64,000 bases of DNA from Patescibacteria group bacterium (GTDB lineage: Bacteria > Patescibacteriota > Patescibacteriia > Magasanikbacterales > UBA922), in the NCBI GenBank assembly GCA_018823045.1, contig JAHJIX010000013.1:21125-85124 (forward strand), written 5' to 3'. The notes below the pieces were generated by a model, which saw nothing but the letters and a program-made list of their open reading frames with translations, was not told where the DNA came from and did no database searches. Position numbers and translations under genes: made by a program. Within the stretch, counting starts at the first letter, position 1. Every line of letters begins with the position of its first letter. This document shows positions 27,593 through 44,626 of the stretch, in pieces.

Positions 27593-28416
27593 TCCCGAAA
27601 AAGTACCCGTCCCTCTACTCCTTCCGCTCTACAAATTTTTTCAATCTCTGGTCTAAGCTTTTTCCAATAGTCGGTTTTTGAAAAATAAATCTTTTCATAC
27701 TTTAAAAGCAAATGTGGCCGTTCTTTTTTTAGCCAATCTTTTACCCCTGGCCATATCATCCCACGAATATTCAAACCATCAAACATATAAAAATTTACCG
27801 CATGCTTTGTCTTTTTTATTATAGTCTTCCAGTCTGTGAGATAAGGAAAGATTGGCGCCACAAAAACATAGGTTTTTATCCCCAAAGAAGAGAGCTCTTC
27901 AAGTACTTTTATTTTTTCTTCAAAAGAAGAGGCTCCTGACTCAATTTGTTTTCTTGCGATTTCAGAAGTAGTCGTAATTGATATACCTACTTGGCAATCC
28001 TTGAACTGCAAAAACAGGTCAGCATCTCTTAATACTAATTTTGACTTAGTAAGAATATTTAATCTTGGCTCAAGAGGAATAAGCTTTTCCAAAGTTTTTC
28101 GAGTCACTTCATACTTTTTTTCTATTGGCATGTACGGATCGGTAACAGAAGAAAAAGAAATCAGTTTATTTTTATACTTATCACTTTTTGTTGGTACTAA
28201 ATCTGGGGCATTTATCTTCACATCAACAAATCTCCCCCATTCTTCCTCATGGCCACTAAACTTTTTCATATAACTGGCATAGCAATAAGAACAGGCATGC
28301 GTGCAGCCTACATAAGGGTTGATAACATAATCTATCGTCGGAATTTTTGATGGACTGATTATTGATTTTGCTTGTATTTCTTTTATTATCATTTTGGAGG
28401 AGAATGAAAAAAACAA
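27589..28416 (-). CDS. radical SAM protein, SplB/DNA-repair-photolyase-like (COG1533 family)
   Basis: CxxxCxxC cluster motif VINPYVGCTHACSYCYA; 275 aa. Confidence 0.75.
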   Translation of the reverse strand: MFFSFSSKMIIKEIQAKSIISPSKIPTIDYVINPYVGCTHACSYCYASYMKKFSGHEEEWGRFVDVKINAPDLVPTKSDKYKNKLISFSSVTDPYMPIEKKYEVTRKTLEKLIPLEPRLNILTKSKLVLRDADLFLQFKDCQVGISITTTSEIARKQIESGASSFEEKIKVLEELSSLGIKTYVFVAPIFPYLTDWKTIIKKTKHAVNFYMFDGLNIRGMIWPGVKDWLKKERPHLLLKYEKIYFSKTDYWKKLRPEIEKICRAEGVEGRVLFRE

Positions 28417-28440
28417 AGATGTAGATTATTTGAATATTTT

Positions 28441-29037
28441 TTATTCCTCTAATTCTATCCTTCGACGACGTTCATCAAGAGTCTCCCCTTCATACATCCA
28501 ATACACTGTTCCTTGTACTTGATATTGATATCCCAATAGCTTTTGTGCAGAAGCCGAAGGGCTTGTAATTTCTCCATCAAATTCAATCAATCGTTTATCA
28601 ACAACCTTTGCAGTTATATTTTCATCATTAACAAAAACAAGTTCAGCTCCAACAGGTATATTTGCCATTTTAAAATTAAAAACAGATCTTCTTGTACGTG
28701 CTTGATTGAGAGCTTGTTGATCTTCTACCGATTCTACATAATCTTGCTTTGGTGTAACATTTTCTATTTCTGCAAGTTTAAGTGCTGATACCACTCGTTC
28801 AGGAGACAATTCAAAGAACTCTCGATTTGATCGTACTCGTAAATCAAGAAAAGCATCATGAAGTTGTTTTTCTACAAATTGTGAATCACTCACAGTACAA
28901 GCATAAAAACACTCAAAAGGAAGAGGTACACTGGTATTATCAAGAGTACGGATTCGTTGTTCTAAGTTTGTTGTTCGTCCTATTTTGATATAGCCAGGCA
29001 TGGCTTCGTTTATGAGGAGGTAGATTATTTGGGGCAT
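28441..29037 (-). CDS. T5orf172 (GIY-YIG-like, MUG113) domain protein
   Basis: IYLLINEAMPGYIKIGRTTNLEQRIRTLDNTSVPLPFE matches the T5orf172 core; 10 nt downstream of res. Confidence 0.7.
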   Translation of the reverse strand: MPQIIYLLINEAMPGYIKIGRTTNLEQRIRTLDNTSVPLPFECFYACTVSDSQFVEKQLHDAFLDLRVRSNREFFELSPERVVSALKLAEIENVTPKQDYVESVEDQQALNQARTRRSVFNFKMANIPVGAELVFVNDENITAKVVDKRLIEFDGEITSPSASAQKLLGYQYQVQGTVYWMYEGETLDERRRRIELEE

Positions 29038-29046
29038 ATTATATAT

Positions 29047-31764
29047 TTAAGAAAGTAAGGAAATCACATCTTTCACAGGACCCTTAAATTCAACATCCTC
29101 AAATTCTTCAAAATGTTTTTCTCCACATTTAATTTTCAATTTTTCTGAATCACGTAAATTTTCAGTTTCATTTTTACCTTTACTTTCTACAACAAAATAT
29201 ATTTTTTTATCTCCATCAAAAACAACTGCCCAATCTGGATTATATGAACCAATAGGAGTTTCAATTTTAAACCAATATGGTAATTTAATATAAAATTTCA
29301 CATCCTCATTTGATTCTAAATCCTGTGCAAACTTATTTTCAATATCAGAGTCACAAATAATATAATTATACAAAGTTTTTTCTTGATTTTGTACTTGATA
29401 CATATTATCAATATATCCCTCTAATTCATCATTTTCAAAACTTTTCATCTCCCAACTATCTCCTACTATTCTTTCATATTTAATACCATCTATCATCATT
29501 TTATTTAATACTAAATTAATTTTCAAAGAAAAAATATCAATAAACTGTTGAGGGTTTTTGAAAACTCCTTCAATCTTTCCTGATTCTTTAATAATTCTTA
29601 AAATAGTATTTTTAGTAAGATTTGTTTTATTTTGAATATTCTCTAAAATATTAGGTATTCTAAAATTATAAATACTTATATCCTTTTCTTTGAAACTTTT
29701 CAAATGACTATCTACTTTCTCTCGCGTAAGATTCAAACTTACTTTTGTATTTTGCAATTTTACTACTTTAATTTCTACATTTTCTAACTCTTGAGCACAT
29801 TTTTCAATTAATTCTTCTGTATTATACTCTACTTGATAACGAGTTTTATGTTTTATTTTATCCCAAAGCTCCTTAAAGTTTTCATCTAATGCATAAGATT
29901 TTTTCAAATGAACTTTTTTCTTTTTTGCTTTGTTTTTTATTCTTCCCGTAAAATTCACTCCACAATCTTCTTCAATCTCTGTTTGTAATGTTTTCGCGAA
30001 ATCCTCATAACTTTCATTAGCAATAACAGTTAAAACATTGATGTTTTCATCAAAAATACGTATGCCTTCTTGATTTACAGGTAAACGTAAACCACGCCCA
30101 ATTTCTTGGCGTTTCTTCATTTCTGAATGTGATTCATTTAATGTACAAATTTGAAATACATTTGGATTATCCCATCCTTCACGCAAAGCTGAATGAGAAA
30201 ATATAAAACGAAGTGGTTCATCTAAAGATAATAATTTTTCTTTATGCTTCATAATAAGAGCATAAGTATCATCATCAACTTTTGTATTTCCCTTTGTATC
30301 TTTTAATAATCCTTTTTTATCTTGAGAAAAATATCCATTGTGAATTTTATCGATATCATTAGAAAGAAGCCCTTTATATTTTGGATTTTCTTTGAAATTA
30401 TTACATATTTCTTCAAACCACTCTGCAAACTTTCCTTGTAATACCTCACCATCTTGATAATTTCTATAATTCGCAACTTTATCAATAAAAAATAAAGATA
30501 AAACCTTAATTCCTTTTCCTTGCAATTTTTTTTCTCTATCTAAATGATTTTGGATAGTCTTTTGAATTTGAAATTTCATTATTTCATCACGATAATCCCC
30601 CTCAGAATGTCCAACATAAATATTTTTTCCATTTGAAAGTCCTATCATTTCTCCATCAACATCAATTTCATCTATAATATAATTATTTTTATATAATTCT
30701 CTTTCTCCCGACAATTTATATAAATCATCTCCTACTTTAACAGTAATTATTTTTTTACTTACTCCATTTTTATTTCCTACATCAATTTTAACCTTTGCAT
30801 TTACTCGTCTTTTTTGTGCATGAACTGATTTCAATTCCACAAAAGCTTGATTATAATTTTCTTCACTTACAATAGAATCTACTTCAATCTTTTTTACCAA
30901 TCCTAAATCATAGGCATCCACAGGATCAAGTTTATAGACAAGATTATAATGATGTTTATGTGTAGCAGAATAACGAAGAGTACAAATAGGATTTAAATTT
31001 TTAATTGCTTTTTTTCGTATATCAGTTTCCATGTTTTGAGGTTCATCTACGATAACAATAGGTTTTACCCCTTGAATATATTCCATAGGTACTCCCCAAT
31101 CACTATTTTTATAGATAATATTTTTTCCCTTTTTACTTGCACTAAATTTCGCAAAAGAATCAATATTAATCACTAATATTTGAAGAGCATTTGTTGTAGC
31201 AAAATTCTTTAATTGTCCTCGTTTCTTTGGATCATATACATAGAAATCCATTTCTGGATTTTCATAGAGCATAGAAAAATGATCTTTTGTAATTTGAAGA
31301 TTTTTTATTACACCTTCTTTAATAGCAATACTAGGAACCACAATAACGAATTTTTTAAATCCATATTGCTTATATAATTCATGAATAGTACGCAGATATA
31401 CATAAGTTTTTCCAGTACCCGTTTCCATTTCTACTGAGAAGTTCATTCCTGAACTTAAACTAACAGTATTATCATCCCAAAGCTCTTCTTTTTGCCAAAT
31501 TAATTCTTTATTCCACAAATTATCTTCGTCTGAAATCTCAATGTTATTATTTTGTTGAATATCTATCAAATTTTTCTTTATAATTGCAGGCTCCAATAAC
31601 AATTTATTTCCAACCAAAAAACTATTTATAATAGGTAATTGGCCTAATACTTGTGATAATTCTAAAGAAAAGTCACTACCATTTGGCTGACCTTTAAAAA
31701 TATCTGTTATTGATTTTATAGCATCAAGCTGATATTGCTGTGATGGATCAAATTGAAGTTTCAT
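29047..31764 (-). CDS. res: Type III restriction endonuclease Res subunit (SF2 helicase-nuclease)
   Basis: 905 aa; Walker A ETGTGKTY; motif II VIVDEPQN; helicase motifs; C-terminal PD-(D/E)xK-like region. Confidence 0.85.
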   Translation of the reverse strand: MKLQFDPSQQYQLDAIKSITDIFKGQPNGSDFSLELSQVLGQLPIINSFLVGNKLLLEPAIIKKNLIDIQQNNNIEISDEDNLWNKELIWQKEELWDDNTVSLSSGMNFSVEMETGTGKTYVYLRTIHELYKQYGFKKFVIVVPSIAIKEGVIKNLQITKDHFSMLYENPEMDFYVYDPKKRGQLKNFATTNALQILVINIDSFAKFSASKKGKNIIYKNSDWGVPMEYIQGVKPIVIVDEPQNMETDIRKKAIKNLNPICTLRYSATHKHHYNLVYKLDPVDAYDLGLVKKIEVDSIVSEENYNQAFVELKSVHAQKRRVNAKVKIDVGNKNGVSKKIITVKVGDDLYKLSGERELYKNNYIIDEIDVDGEMIGLSNGKNIYVGHSEGDYRDEIMKFQIQKTIQNHLDREKKLQGKGIKVLSLFFIDKVANYRNYQDGEVLQGKFAEWFEEICNNFKENPKYKGLLSNDIDKIHNGYFSQDKKGLLKDTKGNTKVDDDTYALIMKHKEKLLSLDEPLRFIFSHSALREGWDNPNVFQICTLNESHSEMKKRQEIGRGLRLPVNQEGIRIFDENINVLTVIANESYEDFAKTLQTEIEEDCGVNFTGRIKNKAKKKKVHLKKSYALDENFKELWDKIKHKTRYQVEYNTEELIEKCAQELENVEIKVVKLQNTKVSLNLTREKVDSHLKSFKEKDISIYNFRIPNILENIQNKTNLTKNTILRIIKESGKIEGVFKNPQQFIDIFSLKINLVLNKMMIDGIKYERIVGDSWEMKSFENDELEGYIDNMYQVQNQEKTLYNYIICDSDIENKFAQDLESNEDVKFYIKLPYWFKIETPIGSYNPDWAVVFDGDKKIYFVVESKGKNETENLRDSEKLKIKCGEKHFEEFEDVEFKGPVKDVISLLS

Positions 31765-31892
31765 AAGTTATTTTTTCTAATATTTTTTTCTCTAGCTAAT
31801 TTAAAACTAGTTTAAATTAAAAGATAGACCTTAATTTAGATAAAAAACACACTCTCTAACTAATCTCTAACTAATTCAGATCTAATTTTGAA

Positions 31893-32420
31893 CTAGTTTA
31901 AATCTAAATTATTTATAATTTTTTCAACGAAAACAGTGCAAAAATGTAACATATTAATAAATATTTCCCAATGATTAAATAATGTATCAAATATCACCAA
32001 AAACAGAACTCCTAAAAAAATCTTTAATTTAAACAAATTATATAACTTTTGAAAAATAGTATTTATAATTTCTATAAAATCAAATCTATACTCATCTATT
32101 TTCTTTACAAAGATTCTTCCAATAACTAAAGAACCAATTAAAAAAACATATTCTTTCATATTTACATTTCCTGTTTTAGATAAAGCAGCAATAATAACGT
32201 ATCCAACAAGAATTAAGACAAAAGCAGATGTTGAAAAATTTCTATTAACAGTATTTATAAAATTTTCAGGAACACGACTCCAATCACCCCCAGAATAACC
32301 AGAAGGAAGCTCCTCTGCAGGAGCAGAATCAACAGCTGTAATATTTCTATTGTCTAAACCCAGAGGCACAAAATCTCGCAAATCATCGTAACCTATCCCT
32401 CTAGTTTCATTATCATCCAT
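31893..32420 (-). CDS. hypothetical 3-TM membrane protein embedded between mod and res
   Basis: 175 aa; soluble N-terminal ~60 aa then three hydrophobic helices; no homology recognised. Confidence 0.5.
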   Translation of the reverse strand: MDDNETRGIGYDDLRDFVPLGLDNRNITAVDSAPAEELPSGYSGGDWSRVPENFINTVNRNFSTSAFVLILVGYVIIAALSKTGNVNMKEYVFLIGSLVIGRIFVKKIDEYRFDFIEIINTIFQKLYNLFKLKIFLGVLFLVIFDTLFNHWEIFINMLHFCTVFVEKIINNLDLN

Positions 32421-32426
32421 ATCTAC

Positions 32427-33200
32427 CTAATTATCTAAACTAAAAAAATAATCAATAAATCCTTTAAATTTTTTTTCTATACTAGAACTACTCTCAAGAG
32501 CCCATTCTTTCAACTTATCTAAATTGTCAAAATTTAAATCTTTTTGACTTAAATCAATATCAAAATAGATACCACTCTTATGATTAAAACTATCATATAA
32601 ATCATTTTTAAATATTTTACTGATAACCTCATTCTTAGTCATAGGTCCTGTAGTAAAATTAACAAATTTTGCATCACTTTGCATATTTATTGCTAAAAAC
32701 CCAGTATCTACTATTTTTCCACCCATTTTCTTTTCTATTACACCTGAATCTTTCAACATTATGTTTTTATAAATACTTTTTACTTCATCTACACCAATTC
32801 CATATTTATGATAAAATATAGAACTTTTTATTCCTATCCGCGAAATATCACCAACTTTATATTTTTTAAATTCATCTAAAATTTCAAAAAGTTTATTTAT
32901 ATAATCTTTAAAATCTTCAAAATCGTTACTAACCTCTATTTGTAATCCAAAGTTTTCCCAACTAAAAAATAAAATTTTATCAAAATTATTATTTGCAATA
33001 TCAAACCGTGAACCAGTCAATTTAAGATTTTCCCAATCCATTTTCTTTATAATATAATCTCCCATTTCTCCTTTATAATCCATAAAAGTGAGATTTCTAT
33101 TTTTAAACCGTATTTCAAATGTATGCCTAGCAATAAAATGATCTTTTTGCTTTTTACCCATAAAAATAAAATTATATAACCTTAAAATCAATCTTTGCAC
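32427..33200 (-). CDS. hypothetical cytoplasmic protein embedded between mod and res
   Basis: 257-aa ORF (likely start MGKKQKDHF near 33161), K/D/F-rich, no recognisable motif; overlaps mod stop. Confidence 0.5.
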   Translation of the reverse strand: MQRLILRLYNFIFMGKKQKDHFIARHTFEIRFKNRNLTFMDYKGEMGDYIIKKMDWENLKLTGSRFDIANNNFDKILFFSWENFGLQIEVSNDFEDFKDYINKLFEILDEFKKYKVGDISRIGIKSSIFYHKYGIGVDEVKSIYKNIMLKDSGVIEKKMGGKIVDTGFLAINMQSDAKFVNFTTGPMTKNEVISKIFKNDLYDSFNHKSGIYFDIDLSQKDLNFDNLDKLKEWALESSSSIEKKFKGFIDYFFSLDN

Positions 33201-35163
33201 TTGCCATTTGCAAAAATGTATTTTTCTTTAATTGATCAAGTGCACCAAAAGCTTCATCAAGACATATAAATTTTTCTGGTTTACCTGCCAAAATAGCATC
33301 AATTAAATTTTTATTCACTCCATTTTCAAGACAAATAGCTAATTTACCATTATTAATAGAAAAATAACTCGTATTTCCAACATCCTTCTTTTCAACAGAT
33401 ACATTCAAATCTAAACCACTTTTCAAAACTAATTCATACAAAATGTTTTCTTGTGTAGAATCTTCTTTCACATTATCTACAAAAAAATCCATTTGTCTCA
33501 ATAATTGTTCTACATCTTTTACATCATTTCTCCAAATCTTGAAATTACTTTCTTCAAGTTTGAATACTTTAAAACCAAGATCAAAAGTATCATCTAATTG
33601 CTTTTCTTCTTTTATTTTCTTTCCAGCACGTCGAATACGTTCTTTTGCAATATCAGCAATTGTTTTATATCCTGCTTTATAAGCTTCACTTTTTTCATCA
33701 CAAAGTTCTGGAAGTTGCACAGATATACACTTACGATTTCCACCATGTTCAGCATTCAGTGCCATTACTGCGTGTGCTGTTGTTGCTGAACCTGCAAAGA
33801 AATCTAAAATCATGTCACCATCTTGAACTACAAAATTACATAATCTATTTAAAATATTAATTGATTTAGGGTTATTAAAAACTGATCTACCGATAAGATT
33901 ATCGACAATTTTAGAAGAGCTTCTACCATCCTCATAAATCATTGTTTTTAATGCATCCCTTGCATTTTCTAATCTTTTTTTAGGCTTAATAAGTACATTA
34001 TGATCTACCCCAAAAAGGATATTATCCTCTTTTATCATATTATCTAAAGTTTCTTTGGGAAACCTAAATCCTTTATCAGGAATTTTACAAACTTTTCCCG
34101 TTTCAGGATGAATAACATCATATCGATAACCTCCAAATTTTGTATTTGCAATATCACCATCATGAAAAACACCTCTTTTATCTACATTATCATAATGAGA
34201 AACTTTAGGTAATTCATTTTTATGTTCTTTTATCCATGTCCGTAATTCTTTTTGAATTAAATTTAAATTATTAATATATTTTTGTTTTAACTCATCATAC
34301 TTAATTTGTATTTTTAAAGCATTGTTATTTTTTCCAATCCAAAAACCCTGTTTAATTTTATCCTTAGCATAACAAATAATATATTCATGTTCAGTATTAA
34401 TTTGAGTTGGATTATTATCTGTAGCTGTTTGAATTATTAAACTACCCAAAAAATTCTCCTCCCCAAATATTTCATTCATTATCATCCTCAAATTATGTAC
34501 CTCATTATCATCAATACTCACAAAAATCACCCCATCGTCCTTCATCAAGTTTCTCGCTAAAAAAAGACGTGGATACATCATATTAAGCCAATCAGAATGA
34601 TAATGTCCTCTATCTTTTGAATTTTTCATCAGCCCATCATTCCTATAATTTCCTTCATCATCAACAATTCCAGCATCTTCCTCATAATCTGACTTTTTTT
34701 GTTTGAAATTATCATTATAAATAAAATCATTTCCTGTATTATACGGAGGATCAATATAAATCATCTTTACCTTTCCATAATACGATTTTTGCAAAACCTT
34801 TAAAACATCAAGATTATCTCCCTCAATAAAAAGATTTTCTGTTGCATCAAAATTCACCGACTCTTCTCGAATAGGTTTTAAAGTTGAAGTTGTAGGTTCT
34901 TGAATTACACGAAAACAATTACTTTTCCCTGCCCAATTCATTCCATATTGTTCTATATTCATCTCTACCTCATCTCCCAAGGTCTGTTTCAACCTATCAC
35001 AATCTATTTTACCTTCTGTAAAGATTTCGGGAAATTTTTCTCGTATCATTGCCAAAAGTTCTTCTTGAGCATTAAGTGATTTTCCATTCATTGTATTGTT
35101 TTTCATACTAAAATATTTCAATTTGTATAAATATAGAATAACGCGTATTCCACGGATTGTCAA
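33172..35163 (-). CDS. mod: Type III restriction-modification methyltransferase Mod (N6-adenine)
   Basis: DPPY motif IYIDPPYNTGNDF; SAM-binding region; likely true start MKNNTMNGKS at 35106. Confidence 0.85.
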   Translation of the reverse strand: MTIRGIRVILYLYKLKYFSMKNNTMNGKSLNAQEELLAMIREKFPEIFTEGKIDCDRLKQTLGDEVEMNIEQYGMNWAGKSNCFRVIQEPTTSTLKPIREESVNFDATENLFIEGDNLDVLKVLQKSYYGKVKMIYIDPPYNTGNDFIYNDNFKQKKSDYEEDAGIVDDEGNYRNDGLMKNSKDRGHYHSDWLNMMYPRLFLARNLMKDDGVIFVSIDDNEVHNLRMIMNEIFGEENFLGSLIIQTATDNNPTQINTEHEYIICYAKDKIKQGFWIGKNNNALKIQIKYDELKQKYINNLNLIQKELRTWIKEHKNELPKVSHYDNVDKRGVFHDGDIANTKFGGYRYDVIHPETGKVCKIPDKGFRFPKETLDNMIKEDNILFGVDHNVLIKPKKRLENARDALKTMIYEDGRSSSKIVDNLIGRSVFNNPKSINILNRLCNFVVQDGDMILDFFAGSATTAHAVMALNAEHGGNRKCISVQLPELCDEKSEAYKAGYKTIADIAKERIRRAGKKIKEEKQLDDTFDLGFKVFKLEESNFKIWRNDVKDVEQLLRQMDFFVDNVKEDSTQENILYELVLKSGLDLNVSVEKKDVGNTSYFSINNGKLAICLENGVNKNLIDAILAGKPEKFICLDEAFGALDQLKKNTFLQMASAKIDFKVI

Positions 35164-35226
35164 ACCTATAAAATGCTAAATTAAGATAAAAAAATGATAT
35201 TAGATCTATCATATTTAACAAAATAC

Positions 35227-35255
35227 TTGACAACTCAAGTACTTTACAATATACT
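35227..35255 (+). promoter_or_regulatory. sigma70-type promoter (TTGACA-17-TATACT) for the MarR gene
   Basis: TTGACA 35227-35232; TATACT 35250-35255. Confidence 0.5.
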
Positions 35256-35289
35256 AAACATATACTTGACTAATCAACTAATAATTATT

Positions 35290-35724
35290 ATGAATAACAC
35301 AAACCTCAACACACTCCTTCACCTCAATAAAGCACACACCGCCCTTACCAAACGATTTGATCGTGGTATGGGCAATGGTATTGGATTTAACGAATTTCTT
35401 ATTCTCTTTTATATTCATCAAGCAGACAATACACAACTCCGCCGAATTGACCTTGCCGAAAAAATAGGAATTACGGCATCAGGCATTACTCGCCTCCTCC
35501 TCCCTATGGAAAAGATAGGGCTTATACAAACAGTCGCAAATCAAGGAGATGATGCACGAGTACGTATGGTAAAAATAACAAAAGGAGGAAAAGAAAAAAT
35601 GAATGAAGCACAAGAGCAACTTGATCTCTTTCTTGCAGAAGTATTTAAATGTATTGATGATAAAAATAAAGAGCTCCTTTCTGACATGCTTATACAGATA
35701 GGTGGCAAAGCGTTGATGCTTTAA
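35290..35724 (+). CDS. MarR-family transcriptional regulator
   Basis: Winged-helix region LRRIDLAEKIGITASGITRLLLPMEKIGLIQT. The annotated ORF begins at 35194, but ATG 35290 (MNNTNL) fits the promoter. Confidence 0.7.
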   Translation: MNNTNLNTLLHLNKAHTALTKRFDRGMGNGIGFNEFLILFYIHQADNTQLRRIDLAEKIGITASGITRLLLPMEKIGLIQTVANQGDDARVRMVKITKGGKEKMNEAQEQLDLFLAEVFKCIDDKNKELLSDMLIQIGGKALML

Positions 35725-35752
35725 AATTTAAAAAGAAAATACCCTTTTTCCA

Positions 35753-36808
35753 TTACTCCTCTCCCTCCAATACCCTCTTGATCTCCCGGTCAAAATCTGA
35801 CTCAAAAAGTCTATCCTGCACAATTCTATATTTTTCAAATTGTGTTTCTGCATGTAACTTAGCTTGTTCACGACTCATCTTTCCACTATTCATCAAAATT
35901 TCTCTGTCATTAAATTCTAAAAAAGAATCAAGCCTTTTGCTCCAATCTTCCATAGTCATCGGAATATTTCTCTCTGCCTGCATTTCTGCATAATCCAAAT
36001 ACATAGAAACAAGTCTTTCGAGAAAATTTATTTCTTTTGAATTGAGGTAATTCTTTGCGATACTTACATCATATTTTTGAATTTTGCCATTTGGGGCATC
36101 AGCCCAACTGGTCAATCCCATATTTTCTTTTTCTGCATTCGCTCTTTCAACAATCAACTCTGCAGCGGTATGCCTATGTACTGCATAATGTAATTTATTT
36201 TGAACAATTTTAAAAAATGTTATTGTCGTCGGAGCAGAAGAATCATAATCAACACTCATGGCATAGATATCTGTTACTTTTTGGTAAAACATTCTTTCAC
36301 TCAATCGAATTTCTCTAATTTTTTGCAATTGACGCTCAAAAAAGACTTTATCAAATTGATTTGCTTTTTTGAGCCTCTCAGTGTCCATCGTCCACCCTTG
36401 AATCGTGTAATCTTTTACTATTTGCCTTGCCCATTTACGAAATTGCACGGCTCTTTCATTTTCTATTTTGAATCCAATAGAAATAATTGTCTGAAGATTA
36501 TAATGTGTTGCATTGTAATTTTTTCCATCAGAAGCAGTTATTAAGTATTGCTTAATAACTGCTTCATCAATTTCATTATCATCAGAAAGCCTTTTTAAAT
36601 GCTGATTGATTGCAGACACAGAAACTCCATACATTTCTGCCATCATCTTTTGAGTCATCCATATATTTTCGTCTTCATATCTCACTTCTATACTTTCAGG
36701 ATCATTCCCAGTAGAAGACACAAAAGTCAAATACTGTGCAGTACTTGCTTGTATCACTTGTGGAAATGATTGTTTCTTTTCTTTTTTTGACATAAAAAAT
36801 ACTGGCAT
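35753..36808 (-). CDS. RhuM-family protein (virulence/defence-island associated DNA-binding protein)
   Basis: N-terminal ENIWMTQKMMAEMYGVSVSAINQHLK and conserved core typical of the RhuM family. Confidence 0.7.
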   Translation of the reverse strand: MPVFFMSKKEKKQSFPQVIQASTAQYLTFVSSTGNDPESIEVRYEDENIWMTQKMMAEMYGVSVSAINQHLKRLSDDNEIDEAVIKQYLITASDGKNYNATHYNLQTIISIGFKIENERAVQFRKWARQIVKDYTIQGWTMDTERLKKANQFDKVFFERQLQKIREIRLSERMFYQKVTDIYAMSVDYDSSAPTTITFFKIVQNKLHYAVHRHTAAELIVERANAEKENMGLTSWADAPNGKIQKYDVSIAKNYLNSKEINFLERLVSMYLDYAEMQAERNIPMTMEDWSKRLDSFLEFNDREILMNSGKMSREQAKLHAETQFEKYRIVQDRLFESDFDREIKRVLEGEE

Positions 36809-38015: not shown

Positions 38016-38786
38016 TTAACGAATAAAAGCTTCTTGTACTTTTTCTGCAAAGATTTTTTGAATGCCATTCATTTCACTTGGTAAAAACGCTTGATACTCT
38101 GCAAATGCTAGGTCAAGTGTTTTCCCAGGACGAAATGTTTGGCCATACCATTTTTTTGCTCCTGCAATCATCTCTGCCATATCTTTAAGAGAAGCCTCCG
38201 AATGGATGTCTTTAACCAAAGTACTGCGAAATTCATAGGGAATTTCTTTTGACATAATCAATGCAATACTTTTTTGTATACGAGTCGCATCACCGGCAGG
38301 TCCTACAAGTCCCCCATACCCCGCTACATCACTTTTAAGATCCATAGCAACATAATCAATCAACTCTTGATCGTAAGCAGCAGCAAGCACCTCAGGATTT
38401 GATCCATTAGTATCTAATTTTACTAAAAATCCCATGTCTTTTATTTTTTTCATCACATCAAGCAAATCTTTTTGCAAGGTTGGTTCTCCACCACTAATAA
38501 CAACGCCATCAAGCTTCCCTTTGCGCTCTGTTAAAAATCGCAATACTGGTTCTTCGGTAAAAAAACTATGTTGTAATTCTTTTATTTTTTCTGGTAAAAC
38601 AAATTCAGGATTATGGCAATACCCACAACGAAAATTACAGCCGGGAGTAAAAATAATACAGGCTGTTTTTTCTGGATAATCAAGGACAGTAAATTTTTGA
38701 ATGCCGCTAATAAACATATAAATAATAAAAAATAGTATATATGAGCACTGTGAACTAAATACGTCATTGCGAGGTGGCGATAGCAC
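38016..38786 (-). CDS. nrdG: anaerobic ribonucleoside-triphosphate reductase activating protein (radical SAM)
   Basis: CNFRCGYCHNPE cluster motif; downstream of nrdD; likely true start MFISGIQ near 38717. Confidence 0.8.
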   Translation of the reverse strand: MLSPPRNDVFSSQCSYILFFIIYMFISGIQKFTVLDYPEKTACIIFTPGCNFRCGYCHNPEFVLPEKIKELQHSFFTEEPVLRFLTERKGKLDGVVISGGEPTLQKDLLDVMKKIKDMGFLVKLDTNGSNPEVLAAAYDQELIDYVAMDLKSDVAGYGGLVGPAGDATRIQKSIALIMSKEIPYEFRSTLVKDIHSEASLKDMAEMIAGAKKWYGQTFRPGKTLDLAFAEYQAFLPSEMNGIQKIFAEKVQEAFIR

Positions 38787-39016
38787 AGCGCGGCAATCTC
38801 ATAATTTCATGCACCAAACAATGGGATTGCTTCGTCGTACCCCCTCGCAATGACGTGGTTCTTTATAATTTACAATGATCATGTGTATATAATTTTTTCG
38901 CCCCACTTCTGATTCTACAGTTGAGAAAAGCCGTGGATAATACCACGGCTTTTCTTGAGAGTATCTGTGAATATATAATTTCTACAAGCATGAGGAAATT
39001 ATACAATAGACAAATT

Positions 39017-39190
39017 ATTACGCAGTGTATTGTTCACTAAAGGATTCATTTGATTCACTACATTCTTGAAAAAATGTTCGTGAACAAAATTCAGATTTTT
39101 TTCCTTTATTGTAAAATGTCACTGGACGATGATATCCCATTACTCGTGTCCATACTTCACATCGTGTACGTTGTGATTCTTTTGGTGCAG
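39017..39190 (-). other. NrdD glycyl-radical C-terminal segment (RCEVWTRVMGYHRPVTFYNKGKKSEF), in frame with nrdD but behind an insert with two stops
   Basis: My own translation. TRVxGY glycyl-radical motif; same reading frame as nrdD; no canonical start codon. Confidence 0.6.
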
Positions 39191-39238
39191 CTACCATATA
39201 TTTTTTTGATAAAAATAATAAATAATAGTATAGGTATT

Positions 39239-41359
39239 TTATTTATGACTCTCACTACTTGTATGCTGTTTTCTAAATTCATGATCTTTTGAATCTGTTT
39301 CTTTAAATCCAAGCTCTTCATCACACACCGGACAAAAGTCAAACTCACCTTTAATATATCCATGCTTTGGACAAATAGAAAATGTAGGAGAAATAGTAAT
39401 GTACGGAAGGTGATAATTTTCTAATGCTTTTTTCACCAAATTTCGACATGCTTCAGGAGTGCTTAAACGTTCACTCATATAACAATGGAATACTGTTCCA
39501 CCGGTATATTTTGTTTGCAACTCATCTTGTAAATCAAGGGCTTCAAATAAATCATCTGTATAACCTACTGGAATTTGAGATGAATTCGTGTAATATGGTG
39601 CTTCTTTTGTGCCTGCTTGTAAAATATCGTCACCAAATCTTTTTTGATCTTCTCGCGCAAAACGATATGTTGTTCCTTCTGCAGGAGTCGCTTCTAAATT
39701 ATATAAATTTCCTGTTTCTTCTTGATATTCTTGCAATTTTTCTCGCATAAAATCAAGAATTTCAAGTGCTAATTTTTGTCCTTCTTTGGTGGTAATATTT
39801 TCTTTATCATCAGTAAAATTTCTAATTGATTCATTTATTCCATTTATACCAATCGTAGAAAAATGACTAGAAAGTGTTCCTAAATAACGTTTTGTGTATG
39901 GAAATAATCCTCGATCCATCCATTTTTGAATTTCTATTCGTTTTAACTCTAATGATGTTTTTGCCAAATCCATCAAATGTCCAAGACGTTCAAAATATGC
40001 TTTTTTATCTCCTTTTTGTGTATATCCAATTCGTGCCGCATTAATGGTGACCACACCAATTGACCCAGTCATTTCTGCAGATCCAAAGAGTCCACCACCA
40101 CGTTTCTTTAATTCTTTTAAATCAAGTTGCAAACGACAGCACATTGAACGGACGTCACTTGGTTTTAAATCTGAATTTAAGAAATTTTGGAAATAGGGCG
40201 TTCCATATTTTGCTGTCATTTCAAACAATGGTAATGCTTTTTCATCTTCCCAATCAAAATCTTTGGTAATATTATACGTTGGAATAGGAAATGTAAAGGT
40301 TCGCCCTTTTGAATCTCCCTTTGTCATGACTTCAATAAATGCTTTGTTAACCAAATCCATTTGGGGTTTTAGCTCACCAAACGTATATGGAAAAATTTTG
40401 CCACCTAAAATCAATTGCTTATCTTTTAAATCATCTGGAACAGTCCAATCAAGTGTAATATTGGTAAATGGTGTTTGTGTTCCCCAACGTGATGGGATGT
40501 TTAGATTAAACACAAATGATTGAATGTTTTGGTACACATAGTCATACACTTTTTTACTGATGTATGCTTCTTTTGCTTCATCACTAGCAAACATCATACC
40601 ATTTTCTTCAATTTCTTCACGTAATTCTAATTCATACTTTTTAACAAATGGGGCCATGTACGTATCAAAACTAGAAAATGCTTGTGCACCTGCCCATTCA
40701 TTTTGAAGTGTTCCTAAAAAATTAATCATTTGTGCCACCGCAGAACTCAAATGTTTTGGCGGGCCTGATTCAATTTTATTTTGCACTCCATTAAATCCTT
40801 CTTCAAGAAGAGCACGAAGACTCCATCCAGCACAATATCCTGAAAACATATCCAAATCATGTACGTGAAAATCTCCATTTCTATGTGTATCACCTACTGA
40901 CTGTGGCAAGATATGACTCAACCAATAATTTGCAGTCACTTTTCCTGATGTATTTAAAATCATTCCACCAAGAGAATATCCTTGATTTGAATTTGCGTTC
41001 ACGCGCCAATCCAATTTATCTAAATATTCTGAAACGGTTTTTCCTACTTCAACAATAACATTTTTTTGTTTGCGATCTTCCCCATGCTTTGCTCGGTATA
41101 AAATGTATGCCTTTGCTGCTGCAACGTATTCTTGTTTAATCAACACCTCTTCAACAATATCTTGCAATTGCTCTACCATTGGAACACTATCTGCATACAA
41201 TTCTTCCGCTTTTTTATATACATCTTTTGCAACGGTACGTGCAATACTCATGTCATCTGTTCCTGTTGCTTGCAAAGCAGCATATATTGCCTGCTCAATC
41301 TTTTTAATATCAAAATCAACAATAGCACCATTACGTTTTTGAATTTTGTGGAGGGGCAT
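39239..41359 (-). CDS. nrdD: anaerobic ribonucleoside-triphosphate reductase (class III RNR) lacking the terminal glycyl-radical motif in this ORF
   Basis: ATP-cone N-terminus, NrdD core, C-terminal Zn-ribbon CPKHGYIKGEFDFCPVC; ORF ends 30 aa after the ribbon. Confidence 0.9.
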   Translation of the reverse strand: MPLHKIQKRNGAIVDFDIKKIEQAIYAALQATGTDDMSIARTVAKDVYKKAEELYADSVPMVEQLQDIVEEVLIKQEYVAAAKAYILYRAKHGEDRKQKNVIVEVGKTVSEYLDKLDWRVNANSNQGYSLGGMILNTSGKVTANYWLSHILPQSVGDTHRNGDFHVHDLDMFSGYCAGWSLRALLEEGFNGVQNKIESGPPKHLSSAVAQMINFLGTLQNEWAGAQAFSSFDTYMAPFVKKYELELREEIEENGMMFASDEAKEAYISKKVYDYVYQNIQSFVFNLNIPSRWGTQTPFTNITLDWTVPDDLKDKQLILGGKIFPYTFGELKPQMDLVNKAFIEVMTKGDSKGRTFTFPIPTYNITKDFDWEDEKALPLFEMTAKYGTPYFQNFLNSDLKPSDVRSMCCRLQLDLKELKKRGGGLFGSAEMTGSIGVVTINAARIGYTQKGDKKAYFERLGHLMDLAKTSLELKRIEIQKWMDRGLFPYTKRYLGTLSSHFSTIGINGINESIRNFTDDKENITTKEGQKLALEILDFMREKLQEYQEETGNLYNLEATPAEGTTYRFAREDQKRFGDDILQAGTKEAPYYTNSSQIPVGYTDDLFEALDLQDELQTKYTGGTVFHCYMSERLSTPEACRNLVKKALENYHLPYITISPTFSICPKHGYIKGEFDFCPVCDEELGFKETDSKDHEFRKQHTSSESHK

Positions 41360-41550: not shown

Positions 41551-43050
41551 TTAAAATAATGAGTGCCCCACCATATGTTGTGGTTTGTCAAGCTTTTTAT
41601 AAAAAAGAAGAGATGGGGCTATATCTAGCAAAGAACCACTTGGAGGCGCTAATCGCATGTTCCCTTCTGGAACATCACCATACCGTAATGCCTGACCACG
41701 AAAGACCTCTGCGATACATAAAACGGGAACAGTTTCACTCAAATCATGTGCATTAAATGAACCAACAATCATGTGTAATCCACCCAAAGATAACACATGC
41801 TCACTCACCCGATGAATATACTCATCAAGAATAGTATATGCATCATCAATGACATGTTGATCATGTGTGGCAATACAATCATCAAGATATTGCATTGAAA
41901 CCATAAGTACTCCATCAACAAGCTCACTTTGCATAATAACTTTTTTCATTAACATATCAACATGCTTGCGTAAACGAACCAAAGGATCTAAACCAATCTC
42001 CGGCATATCAATCATATGATGTTCATACTCCGTTTGCAAAACTCCTTCTGAGGTATGTAACCGTCCCAGAAGTAAAGGATATCCTTTCCCATCACTAATA
42101 TATGCTTGTGCAATATTATGCTCACGTAAAACATCTAATAAAGTGTCTGTATGTAATGGTCCAGACCATAATACTTTTGCCGGAATACCTTGTGCATATG
42201 ATACCAAGGTATACCCTGAACGAAACATCTGATCATCAACTTGTGTATGCACAGAAGATGGAACAAAACACAATTTAACCAATTGCGCAGTGTGTGCTCT
42301 TTTTGTATCAAAAAATAAAACAATATCACCTGAATGATATGCAGGACTATCCTGCGTCATGACTGGCGGAAGTGTTTCAAGTGTATATTCTTTTTCTAAT
42401 AAAAGACGCACAAAATCAAGTAATTTTGCTGATCGCGTTTCTTCTGCATCCCGATTAAATATGCCATCATATGCACGTTGCGTTCTTTCCCAATGATTAC
42501 TTGCATCACAACCATATCGACTTCCAACAACCGTCCCAATTTGTATTCCATCCATATCTTGAATAGCGGCAAGTGTTAAAAGAAAACGATCCATTGTTAA
42601 CAATTCATCTGAAGCAATAACAATATGAACAACAATTGCCGTTGTAATTTCTTTTATTTCTCTTGTTTGCATAAAACAACGTATCCGTCGTAATAACGCT
42701 TCCGTTTCTAAAGAAAGCGACACAATCATATGCACTGTATTTTTCGATTCTTTTATTTCTCTAAACAAATGATCAACTGCAGGTAATGACCAAAATGATT
42801 CATTATGAATTACATAATCTATCATATAATTTATAGGAGAAACACCTGTACCAATACTTGTATAGCCCAAAGCAACATTTCCTTCTCGAAGAGCACTTAC
42901 CCCTAACCCAACTCCACTTGCATGAAGTATCCCAGCAGGATATTCTTGAATATAATTCGCTATATGTTTTTTTGTATCAAAACGTGGCGCCTGTTCTTTC
43001 ACATCAATACCCCATCCATCAACAATAGTAAGTACCGTTGGTTGTATCAT
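41551..43050 (-). CDS. iPGM-like paralog with degenerate active site (probable pseudo-enzyme or divergent phosphomutase)
   Basis: N-terminal TIVDGWGI resembles iPGM. The catalytic Ser region (GNSEVGH) is replaced by REGNVALGY, and ADHGN by GSFNAHD. Confidence 0.6.
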   Translation of the reverse strand: MIQPTVLTIVDGWGIDVKEQAPRFDTKKHIANYIQEYPAGILHASGVGLGVSALREGNVALGYTSIGTGVSPINYMIDYVIHNESFWSLPAVDHLFREIKESKNTVHMIVSLSLETEALLRRIRCFMQTREIKEITTAIVVHIVIASDELLTMDRFLLTLAAIQDMDGIQIGTVVGSRYGCDASNHWERTQRAYDGIFNRDAEETRSAKLLDFVRLLLEKEYTLETLPPVMTQDSPAYHSGDIVLFFDTKRAHTAQLVKLCFVPSSVHTQVDDQMFRSGYTLVSYAQGIPAKVLWSGPLHTDTLLDVLREHNIAQAYISDGKGYPLLLGRLHTSEGVLQTEYEHHMIDMPEIGLDPLVRLRKHVDMLMKKVIMQSELVDGVLMVSMQYLDDCIATHDQHVIDDAYTILDEYIHRVSEHVLSLGGLHMIVGSFNAHDLSETVPVLCIAEVFRGQALRYGDVPEGNMRLAPPSGSLLDIAPSLLFYKKLDKPQHMVGHSLF

Positions 43051-43051
43051 A

Positions 43052-44626
43052 TTACATCATTAATGATTTTCCTGTCATTTCTTTTGGTTTAGGTATATCT
43101 AATACATCTAATACCGTTGGTGCAATATCTGCTAATATTCCTTTTGCACGTAACCGTTTATGTACTACTGGCTCAGAAACAATAATACATGGCACAGGAT
43201 TTGTTGTATGTTCAGTTAATACGGCTCCTGTTTGCTTATTCACCATTTGTTCAGCATTACCATGATCTGCAATAATCATTAAAGTACCCCCCACTTTTTT
43301 TATTTGTGTCACTAATCGTTTTATTTGTGTATCAACAACATGCACTGCTTTTTTTGCCGCCTCAATATTTCCTGTATGGCCAACCATATCAACATTAGGA
43401 TAATTCACGCAAATAAATTGATACGTATTTTTTTCAAGTGATGTCAAAATAACATCCGTAATTTCTTTCGCTTTCATTTGCGGATAATCGGCATATGAAT
43501 CATGACCCGATGAAGAAATGAGTTTTCGATCCTCTCCGTTGACAATATCAGCGTGTCCACCATTCATAAAATACGTCACATGTGCATATTTTTCAGTTTC
43601 TGAAATATACAACTGCTTCATATGATCACCCAACACTTGTGGCAAGGTATTAACCAAATCAGCACTAGGAAATGCAGTAAAAATATCCGGTAGGTCAGGA
43701 CCAAAATCAGTCATCGCTACAAAACGAATGTTTTTAGGACGCTTTGTTCGGGTAAATGCTCCTGGATTCATTTTTTTAAATTGAGGTTGCACAAATGCTT
43801 TGGTAATCTGTCGTGCACGATCACTTCTTGCATTAAAAAATAAAATAACATCATTATCTTGTATAGGCCCAACAGGTTTCTTTCCATCATAAACAACTGT
43901 TGGTTGAATAAACTCATCAGTTTCTCCTCGACTATATGCTTGAGCAATCGCTTCTTCAGCTGAATGCATATGACAAATTCCCTTTCCAAGCACCATTGCC
44001 TCATAAGCTTTTTTTGTTCTCTCCCAAATTTTATTGCGATCCATTGCATACAAACGCCCCATCACTGTTGCAATTTTTTCGTGTGGCTGCATGTGTTTAC
44101 GCAATTCTTTTAAATAGGTTACCGCTTCATGTGGTGGAGAGTCTCGCCCATCAGTAAACACATGAACATATACCTTGTTCACTTTTTCTTGACGACATAA
44201 TTTTAACAATGCATAGAGATGTTTTGGAGATGCATGAGCACTTTGCCCATTAGTCAACAAACCCATAATGTGCACCGCTGTATTATATTTTTTTGCATGA
44301 TATATAGCTTGCTTACATGCTTCATTTTTAAAAAAAGTTCCATCTTCAATTGCTTCAGTGATATGAACTAAATCTTGTTTAACAATTCGACCAGCACCAA
44401 TATTTAAATGTCCAGCTTCTGAATTTCCTTCTTGATCTTTAAATAAACCAACAGCCTTTCCATGCGCAGCAACAACTGTCGTTGGATATTCTTTCATGAG
44501 CCCATACAAATATGGAGCCGTTTCTTTTGTAATGGCATTTCCATCTTTTGCATGTTCATTTAAACCAAAACCATCAAGGATAGCTAATACCAATGGTGCT
44601 GTCGTTTCTTTTGTCGTCTGCTTCAT
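43052..44626 (-). CDS. gpmI: 2,3-bisphosphoglycerate-independent phosphoglycerate mutase
   Basis: LAILDGFGL, GNSEAGHLNIGAGR, TDGRDSPP, ADHGNAE, TEHTTNPVP; 524 aa. Confidence 0.92.
   Translation of the reverse strand: MKQTTKETTAPLVLAILDGFGLNEHAKDGNAITKETAPYLYGLMKEYPTTVVAAHGKAVGLFKDQEGNSEAGHLNIGAGRIVKQDLVHITEAIEDGTFFKNEACKQAIYHAKKYNTAVHIMGLLTNGQSAHASPKHLYALLKLCRQEKVNKVYVHVFTDGRDSPPHEAVTYLKELRKHMQPHEKIATVMGRLYAMDRNKIWERTKKAYEAMVLGKGICHMHSAEEAIAQAYSRGETDEFIQPTVVYDGKKPVGPIQDNDVILFFNARSDRARQITKAFVQPQFKKMNPGAFTRTKRPKNIRFVAMTDFGPDLPDIFTAFPSADLVNTLPQVLGDHMKQLYISETEKYAHVTYFMNGGHADIVNGEDRKLISSSGHDSYADYPQMKAKEITDVILTSLEKNTYQFICVNYPNVDMVGHTGNIEAAKKAVHVVDTQIKRLVTQIKKVGGTLMIIADHGNAEQMVNKQTGAVLTEHTTNPVPCIIVSEPVVHKRLRAKGILADIAPTVLDVLDIPKPKEMTGKSLMM

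Follow-up and report, generated by a model that had tools for sequence, protein, structure and literature searches.

Evidence for a naturally split class III ribonucleotide reductase in Patescibacteria, with the predicted glycyl-radical loop on a separate small protein

The stretch of DNA analysed in this work (the window) comprises 64,000 nt from the genome of a Patescibacteria group bacterium (assembly GCA_018823045.1, contig JAHJIX010000013.1, positions 21,125 to 85,124). On its minus strand lies nrdD, the gene of the anaerobic ribonucleotide reductase (RNR), which ends before the glycine motif that characterizes the C-terminus of this enzyme; a second open reading frame (ORF) of 59 codons, which does carry the motif, follows directly, and downstream of it stands nrdG, the gene of the activase (Table 1). 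The gene structure, its conservation among relatives, the purifying selection on the small ORF, the operon order and the way in which the two products complement each other on the family profiles lead us to the view that the locus very probably encodes a naturally split class III (anaerobic) RNR, whose catalytic polypeptide would be provided by two adjacent and separately translated genes. A preliminary description of the same DNA had compared the locus with the ribosome hopping of phage T4 gene 60 and had named a split NrdD among several alternatives.

Table 1. Features of the nrdD-nrdG region, in coordinates of the window
Feature	Position	Strand	Basis
nrdD large gene, 706 aa + TAA	39239..41359	minus	ORF list; Pfam, NCBIfam; structure alignment
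Conserved 27-aa C-terminal tail of the large subunit (D680-K706, DEELGFKETDSKDHEFRKQHTSSESHK), after the Zn ribbon	39242..39322	minus	homologue consensus
Weak A/U-rich hairpin spanning the nrdD stop codon	39209..39255	minus	in minimum-free-energy fold
A/T-rich intergenic spacer of 41 nt, nrdD TAA to small-gene ATG	39198..39238	minus	sequence, three-frame translations
Small gene, 59 aa + TAA, glycyl-radical subunit: MVAAPKESQRTRCEVWTRVMGYHRPVTFYNKGKKSEFCSRTFFQECSESNESFSEQYTA	39018..39197	minus	ATG-started ORF; Pfam
GGA codon of Gly21 in RVMGY of the small protein, predicted glycyl-radical site	39135..39137	minus	read from sequence
G+C-rich hairpin of 13 bp (GAAAAGCCGUGG / CCACGGCUUUUC) in the 300-nt gap between small gene and nrdG	38926..38957	minus	RNA fold
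nrdG, radical-SAM activase, 233 aa by NCBI gene call (longest ORF to 38786)	38016..38717	minus	TIGR02495 NrdG2, Pfam

The large gene is recognized as an nrdD by three family models. It matches the Pfam NRDD profile from position 2 to 529 of 562 (E = 2.4e-174, 581.6 bits against a cut-off of 26.2) together with an ATP-cone, TIGR02487 with 460.6 bits (cut-off 326.35), and NCBIfam NF006126 with 1067 bits (cut-off 548), on which it reaches profile position 653 of 684. Its domain content consists of the ATP-cone, the class III RNR barrel, a finger loop with M406-C407-C408-R409, and a Zn ribbon spaced as C663-x2-H666 ... C676-x2-C679. The finger loop has the double-cysteine MCCR motif of a class defined previously (PMC9669993). 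In an alignment (A4) that combines an end-to-end fusion of the two window proteins with 68 continuous database homologues, M406-C407-C408-R409 is invariant, C663 and H666 are nearly invariant, and C676-P677-x-C679 is conserved. As the preliminary description had stated, and as the ORF list and the profiles confirm, the 706-aa product ends (...FCPVCDEELGFKETDSKDHEFRKQHTSSESHK-TAA, that is ...SESHK) after the Zn ribbon, and the RVxGY motif is absent from its entire length. For the solved NrdD structures 8p23 (P. copri), 4coi and 4u3e (T. maritima), too, the alignment with the large ORF goes no further than the Zn ribbon. Thus, the family models, the finger-loop cysteines with the Zn ribbon, and the nearby NrdG all place the locus in class III, and the one feature that departs from the class is the position of RVxGY, which is found on the 59-aa ORF and not at the C-terminus of the same polypeptide.

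The small ORF supplies what the large ORF lacks. An ATG at 39197-39195 opens it (MVAAPKESQRTRCEVWTRVMGY...), and its product matches the Pfam NRDD profile over positions 531-562 of 562 (E = 2e-7, above the gathering score) with no other Pfam match; on NF006126 it covers positions 649-682 of 684. The Pfam NRDD profile is therefore divided between the two ORFs without overlap (large, 2-529; small, 531-562). The glycine and tyrosine of the small protein's RVMGY motif (G727 and Y728 in the numbering of the fused sequence) are invariant in alignment A4, and from the family Gly21 is predicted to be the radical site. Both ORFs are called as genes in the NCBI record and in the Logan assembly. A Shine-Dalgarno-like motif precedes only 3 of the 51 long ORFs of the window, where A/T-rich leaders such as ...aaaaatatATG are typical, and translation initiation in this organism seems to be largely independent of such motifs. 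Because the genes of the window almost never use them, the A/T-rich leader of the small ORF is normal for the organism.

The preliminary description had correctly identified an unmistakable NrdD glycyl-radical segment (CEVWTRVMGYHRPV...) directly downstream of nrdD, and its account of how this segment is connected to nrdD has to be revised. It had placed the motif in the nrdD frame, behind a 51-nt insert with two in-frame stops and with no ATG, GTG or TTG upstream. In fact, the nrdD frame beyond the TAA reads NTYTIIYYFYQKNIW, a stop, LHQKNHNVHDVKYGHE and another stop; the small ORF occupies the +2 frame with respect to nrdD (an offset of 41 nt, which is 2 modulo 3), starts with its own ATG, and is separated from nrdD by the intergenic spacer listed in Table 1. 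The readings "in frame", "two in-frame stops" and "no start codon" all arose because a one-base slip in the run ccaaaagaa had joined LHQK of the nrdD frame to ESQRTR of the small-ORF frame.

To find relatives with the same layout, the large protein was scanned against one genome per GTDB species, which gave 64 loci, and the downstream regions were then read in three frames. This reading yielded 23 split loci, including the window (L001), and Chitinilyticum piscinae (L069) completes a set of 24, all with the order large nrdD, small glycine-loop ORF and then usually nrdG. The taxa include Patescibacteria, Sutterella (among them the cultured S. massiliensis, L017), the cultured Chitinilyticum piscinae, a Terrimicrobiaceae metagenome-assembled genome (MAG) of the Verrucomicrobia, and a Micrarchaeote. 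In the split loci the large ORF ends 10-33 residues past the second CxxC of the Zn ribbon, the small ORFs carry E-[VI]-[WY]-[ST]-R-[VIT]-x-G-Y-x-R-P, and the break point always falls after the Zn ribbon and before E-[VI]-[WY]-[ST]-R-x-x-G-Y. An nrdG-like gene on the same strand stands 3' of the small ORF in 21 of the 22 loci with downstream sequence (by motif scan), often 1-3 nt past its stop codon, and the Pfam gene table shows one after the small ORF of Chitinilyticum as well. The small ORF starts with ATG in every one of the 24 loci, and clear Shine-Dalgarno sequences precede three proteobacterial ones, namely GAGGAGG (L024), GGAGGG (S. massiliensis, L017) and GGGGAGAG (L016). Spacer lengths lie between 1 nt (L014) and 329 nt (L010); relative to nrdD, ten small ORFs are in frame 2, eight in frame 1 and six in frame 0. 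Frame offsets spread over 0, 1 and 2 are expected of independent genes. Unusually long spacers were seen in L006 (231 nt), L010 (329 nt), L009 (146 nt), L048 (169 nt), L016 (302 nt), L017 (260 nt) and L069 (121 nt); the spacers of L006 and L010 seem to be related, and both have promoter-like and Shine-Dalgarno-like strings in them. An Rfam scan at gathering thresholds of eight loci, including the window, found tRNAs outside the region only and nothing in the spacers.

These comparisons also bear on whether the two ORFs could be joined during translation. In bypassing of the T4 gene 60 type, ribosomes would take off at the AAA before the TAA, skip the spacer and land on a second AAA, giving one continuous NrdD. 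The last sense codon of nrdD is indeed AAA, as the preliminary description had noted, and the hairpin at this site includes the stop codon; in 13 of the 24 loci the last sense codon recurs in the N-terminus of the small ORF. In the window, the recurring AAA is the sixth codon of the small ORF and lies 62 nt away, out of frame, and not 60 nt away in a matched frame as had been thought. The premise of the proposal, an in-frame motif without a start codon, was the misreading described above, and the small ORF has its own ATG throughout the 24 loci, with a Shine-Dalgarno sequence where the taxon uses one (L016, L017, L024). Gaps vary from 1 to 329 nt, the matching codon is missing in 11 of the 24 loci, and AAA is in any case a very common codon at 35% G+C. 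The residues ahead of the putative landing site would serve nothing under bypassing, yet the ATG-started ORF is always retained. The 8-bp A/U stem over the stop codon (AUAAAUAA / UUAUUUAU) does exist; its z-score of -1.58 is not significant, 14 of 200 shuffled sequences fold equally well or better, and it is probably a by-product of base composition. The likeness to T4 gene 60 (a codon that comes back downstream, a stop directly behind its first copy, and a stem-loop there) is thus superficial, because in the window the downstream part has a conserved start codon of its own, the gap and frame vary among relatives, and the hairpin does not stand out from shuffled sequences. We consider bypassing very unlikely.

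A -1 (or +2) frameshift at CAU-AAA-UAA would fuse the two ORFs through 15 open codons, IKYLYYYLLFLSKKY. No stop interrupts the small-ORF frame from 2 nt ahead of the nrdD TAA onward, and a hungry stop codon after AAA could permit slippage. Nevertheless, there is no canonical slippery heptamer, the relatives use frames 0, 1 or 2, the same-frame locus L018 has two intervening stops, and the would-be linker is not conserved; even the closest relative, L020, has an offset of 1. Frameshifting as the way in which the enzyme is made therefore has very little chance of being correct. Several further ways of joining the pieces were tried and rejected. Stop-codon readthrough is ruled out by the frame analysis, with frame, gap and codons all unconserved, and an alternative genetic code cannot join the ORFs because the stop is TAA and the frames differ. 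An intron or structured RNA in the spacer finds no Rfam match, and a group I or II intron would not fit into 41 nt. For a split intein with trans-splicing, neither the 27-aa tail nor the small N-terminus of about 10 aa comes near the length required, and intein families gave no match.

A truncated enzyme gene followed by its own missing motif has the look of a fresh disruption, and the preliminary description had listed a pseudogene among its alternatives; on this reading a nonsense mutation or an indel has cut nrdD, and the downstream piece is what was left over. The selection data speak against decay. Ratios of nonsynonymous to synonymous substitution rates (dN/dS, Nei-Gojobori method) of the small ORF lie between 0.04 and 0.18 among the pairs in which dS is not saturated, for example 0.04 for L011/L012 and for L016/L017, 0.11 for L006/L010, 0.15 for the window and L020, and 0.16 for L005/L056; in pairs that are further apart, synonymous sites have reached saturation while protein identity is still 60-70%. 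The small ORF is therefore under purifying selection. Searches among 5.8 billion proteins gave 2243 candidates for the small protein (E <= 1e-3), the best 120 of which are all stand-alone proteins of 53-89 aa, labelled "hypothetical protein" or "anaerobic ribonucleoside-triphosphate reductase". The best 120 matches to the large ORF have 699-735 aa, and none of them contains the glycine motif, which is present in 119 of the best 120 matches to the continuous relative L019. The comparison of nrdD C-termini that the preliminary description had proposed thus gave no continuous version among the 120 closest large subunits, and the same break point recurs across phyla. Since the break is also identical in two assemblies, the tail motif and its length are conserved and the operon with nrdG is kept, we regard gene decay as extremely unlikely.

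An assembly or sequencing artefact, in which a homopolymer indel creates a false break, had also been listed earlier, and the A-runs of this A/T-rich region and the metagenomic origin of the genome would be compatible with it. The 2343 nt of nrdD, spacer and small ORF are identical in the NCBI MAG contig JAHJAC010000020.1 (GCA_018814165.1) and in a separate Logan assembly of SRR2540949. One indel cannot account for the ~140 nt of tail, spacer and N-terminus by which the locus exceeds compact continuous genes, and the layout is also present in the isolate genomes L017 and L069. Because the separate assembly is identical and the layout recurs in other species, the chance of an assembly error is negligible.

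The sequence around the break indicates how the split may have arisen. The 27-aa tail of the large subunit is conserved, with the consensus CPKCD.ELGI..GeRfD.E.RKkY.S..AeK over 120 large-subunit homologues; its length is exactly 27 aa in 86 of them, and the last residue is K or R in 109. The continuous proteins P0256-P0268 contain a linker of 20-37 residues between CPxCD and ER.xCEVW, and in the alignment this linker corresponds to the split tail followed by the N-terminus of the small protein, with the large-subunit tail at the start of the linker. Judged from this alignment, the tail is the first half of the former linker. Because the linker of the continuous relatives corresponds to tail plus small N-terminus, the fission or fissions would have occurred inside an extended flexible linker. 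A neighbour-joining tree built on the core of the large subunit places the split forms in at least three positions. The first is a big group of Patescibacteria together with Proteobacteria and Verrucomicrobia, inside which the continuous L019, L021 and L023 are nested; the second consists of L033, L038 and L051 and is sister to the continuous L045; and the third is the Micrarchaeote L043, sister to the continuous L042. The small subunits of the second clade of split NrdDs (L033:5093-5336, L038:5065-5332 and L051:5088-5352) are 81-89 aa long and have their own CxxC...CxxC ahead of the glycine loop, an extra Zn-ribbon-like motif.

Two other loci from the searches show unusual arrangements of nrdD. 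In the Thermoplasmata locus L057, nrdD lies within an uninterrupted frame of 1894 aa, which may mean inteins. A scan of viral contigs gave one distant jumbo-phage match (47% identity), which is not of the split type as far as examined. In the 201-kb jumbo-phage contig IMGVR_UViG_3300047567_000058 (L070), about 400 NrdD residues are matched over a distance of 2.5 kb, suggesting an insertion.

A structural model was calculated with AlphaFold2 from the two window proteins joined end to end, using alignment A4. It has a mean predicted local distance difference test score (pLDDT) of 81.3 and a predicted template modelling score (pTM) of 0.77. The part with the glycine loop (residues 711-750) reaches pLDDT values of 80-92, and the junction (residues 689-704) stays below 50 and is predicted to be disordered. 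A Foldseek search with this model gave class III RNRs as the best matches, with template modelling (TM) scores of 0.66-0.79 normalised to the target; the 59-aa protein alone had no meaningful match among solved structures. The model is consistent with a break in a disordered tether.

We infer that the two products would assemble into an active heteromer. The ten-stranded barrel, the Cys-Cys finger loop and the allosteric sites would come from the large subunit, and the small protein would dock its glycine loop into that barrel, at the place taken by the C-terminal glycyl-radical domain in a one-piece NrdD. NrdG would take the H atom from Gly21 of the small subunit, and the radical would then move to the finger-loop cysteine for ribonucleotide reduction; glycyl-radical formation and ribonucleotide reduction by the split enzyme are predicted here from the mechanism of the family.

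Some points weigh against a split enzyme and should be kept in view. Both protein products and their complex are predictions from the gene sequences, and the window organism is an uncultured MAG. The finger loop of the AlphaFold2 model (residues 408-429) is of low confidence, and the model is silent on the association of separate chains because an artificial fusion and continuous homologues were used. In the Nitrosomonadales MAG L015, which has a large subunit of the truncated type, no small ORF was found in the ~640 nt of downstream sequence that could be read. In L015, a methyltransferase-like ORF follows the large subunit, and the small gene may lie elsewhere or past the end of the contig. 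In the genome of the window, ribosomes might also slip by -1 at CAU-AAA-UAA to a low level and enter the open part of the small-ORF frame.

The split enzyme can be compared with several known systems. The canonical NrdD/NrdG pairs of E. coli, phage T4, Thermotoga maritima and Prevotella copri (PDB 1h79, 4u3e, 4coi, 8p23) belong to the same family by profile and fold and share with it the ATP-cone, the barrel, the double-cysteine MCCR finger loop, the Zn ribbon, the RVxGY loop and an adjacent activase of the NrdG2 type. In the canonical enzymes the glycine loop forms the C-terminal ~40 residues of the same chain, whereas in the window it is a separate 59-aa product and the large chain ends in the 27-aa tail. 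In the split class II RNR NrdJa/NrdJb of Pseudomonas aeruginosa and other Proteobacteria, two adjacent operon genes with a fixed break are both needed for activity (PMC4520616). The catalytic polypeptide is thus distributed over two adjacent genes with a conserved break point in both cases; however, NrdJ is a B12-dependent class II enzyme with no glycyl radical, another break point and an NrdJb of 229 aa, and the window RNR is of class III by the family models.

The closest parallel to the small protein itself is GrcA (YfiD) of E. coli and Y06I of phage T4, which are also stand-alone copies of a glycyl-radical domain, presumably activated by the activase and inserted into a large partner. Researchers have found that GrcA rescues a complete pyruvate formate-lyase (PFL) after oxygen has cleaved the glycine loop of PFL (PMC8683613, PMC13450708). 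By analogy, the small protein could be a spare part for an oxygen-cleaved complete NrdD encoded elsewhere, as it is a small stand-alone homologue of the C-terminal glycyl-radical domain of a glycyl-radical enzyme (GRE), just as GrcA is of PFL. However, the small ORF has no match to PFL's Gly_radical domain and is in this respect no GrcA/YfiD homologue; GrcA is related to PFL and serves a partner that has its own loop, whereas the small protein is of the NrdD type and would be obligatory for a partner without a loop. The adjacent large subunit lacks the glycine loop, as do all 120 of its closest homologues, and the small gene is encoded between the large nrdD gene and nrdG in 21 of the 22 scanned loci and in Chitinilyticum; our view of this genome covers 64 kb, and a further, full-length nrdD may lie outside it. 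Because the adjacent large subunit never had a glycine loop, the small protein would be the only radical site of this enzyme, and a spare-part role is improbable. The suggestion of a genuinely split NrdD in the preliminary description is thus supported in its core, but the small gene begins with a canonical ATG and not with the non-canonical start proposed there, and its product is not a spare part of the GrcA type.

Beyond the existence of the split, we tentatively consider that it may not be a neutral fission but may create an exchangeable "radical cartridge", a possibility on which we place limited weight. The 7-kDa subunit would be activated by NrdG while free, dock into the 80-kDa body, and be replaced after oxygen cleavage. 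Activation in the free state would not require a tethered glycine loop to be pulled from the barrel, and two conserved elements, the large-subunit tail (G..D..R..Y.S) and the C-terminal extension of the small protein (F.EC.AAN..F..Y), would serve for docking. Any benefit of the split, like the assembly and the activation of the small subunit, is put forward here from sequence data.

The surroundings of the two genes complete the picture of the locus. The nrdG product matches NCBIfam TIGR02495 (NrdG2) with 194 bits as well as Pfam Radical_SAM and Fer4_12. The G+C-rich hairpin between the small gene and nrdG has a folding energy of -24.9 kcal/mol and a z-score of -5.94, with 0 of 200 shuffles as good; it was not called in a simple terminator scan, and from its sequence it may be a terminator or attenuator of the transcript of the large and small nrdD genes. 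The nrd operon is adjoined by a stretch of low G+C content (28000-36800, 27-31% versus ~35%), which holds the type III restriction-modification genes Res (29047-31764) and Mod (33172-35163), a MarR-like gene (35194-35724) and a RhuM-family gene (35753-36808), and which is probably an acquired island. On the other side, 41551-44626 contains two tandem paralogues of phosphoglycerate mutase (iPGM). The upstream copy (43052-44626) is complete, and the one adjoining nrdD (41551-43050) has only a weak iPGM_N match, with the Metalloenzyme domain unmatched.

No account of a split or two-gene NrdD turned up in full-text literature searches (subscription-only papers were outside their reach), and in the papers covered the layout appears to be undescribed. 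NrdJ has been stated to be the only split RNR of cellular organisms (PMC4520616), and a review of June 2026 names formate lyases as the only GRE class with known spare-part proteins (PMC13450708). A two-gene NrdD would correct both the former statement (PMC4520616) and the view that only formate lyases have stand-alone glycyl-radical proteins (PMC13450708). It also has consequences for annotation, because the small ORFs are mostly labelled "hypothetical protein" or missed altogether, and the large ORFs look complete but, judging from their motifs, would be unable to work alone; since they look complete, metabolic reconstructions of Patescibacteria that rely on this RNR are affected. In GREs the radical glycine is buried in the barrel, yet the activase must reach it, and how the loop exits and re-enters is an open question that has so far been studied with PFL and GrcA. 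A natural class III RNR with a free glycine loop of 6-7 kDa would allow activation, docking, radical transfer and oxygen repair to be studied separately, and two-piece versions exist in cultured bacteria (Sutterella, Chitinilyticum). If the small subunit does prove to be an exchangeable cartridge, it would provide a built-in repair of the only RNR in anaerobes that are exposed to oxygen, such as groundwater Patescibacteria and gut Sutterella.

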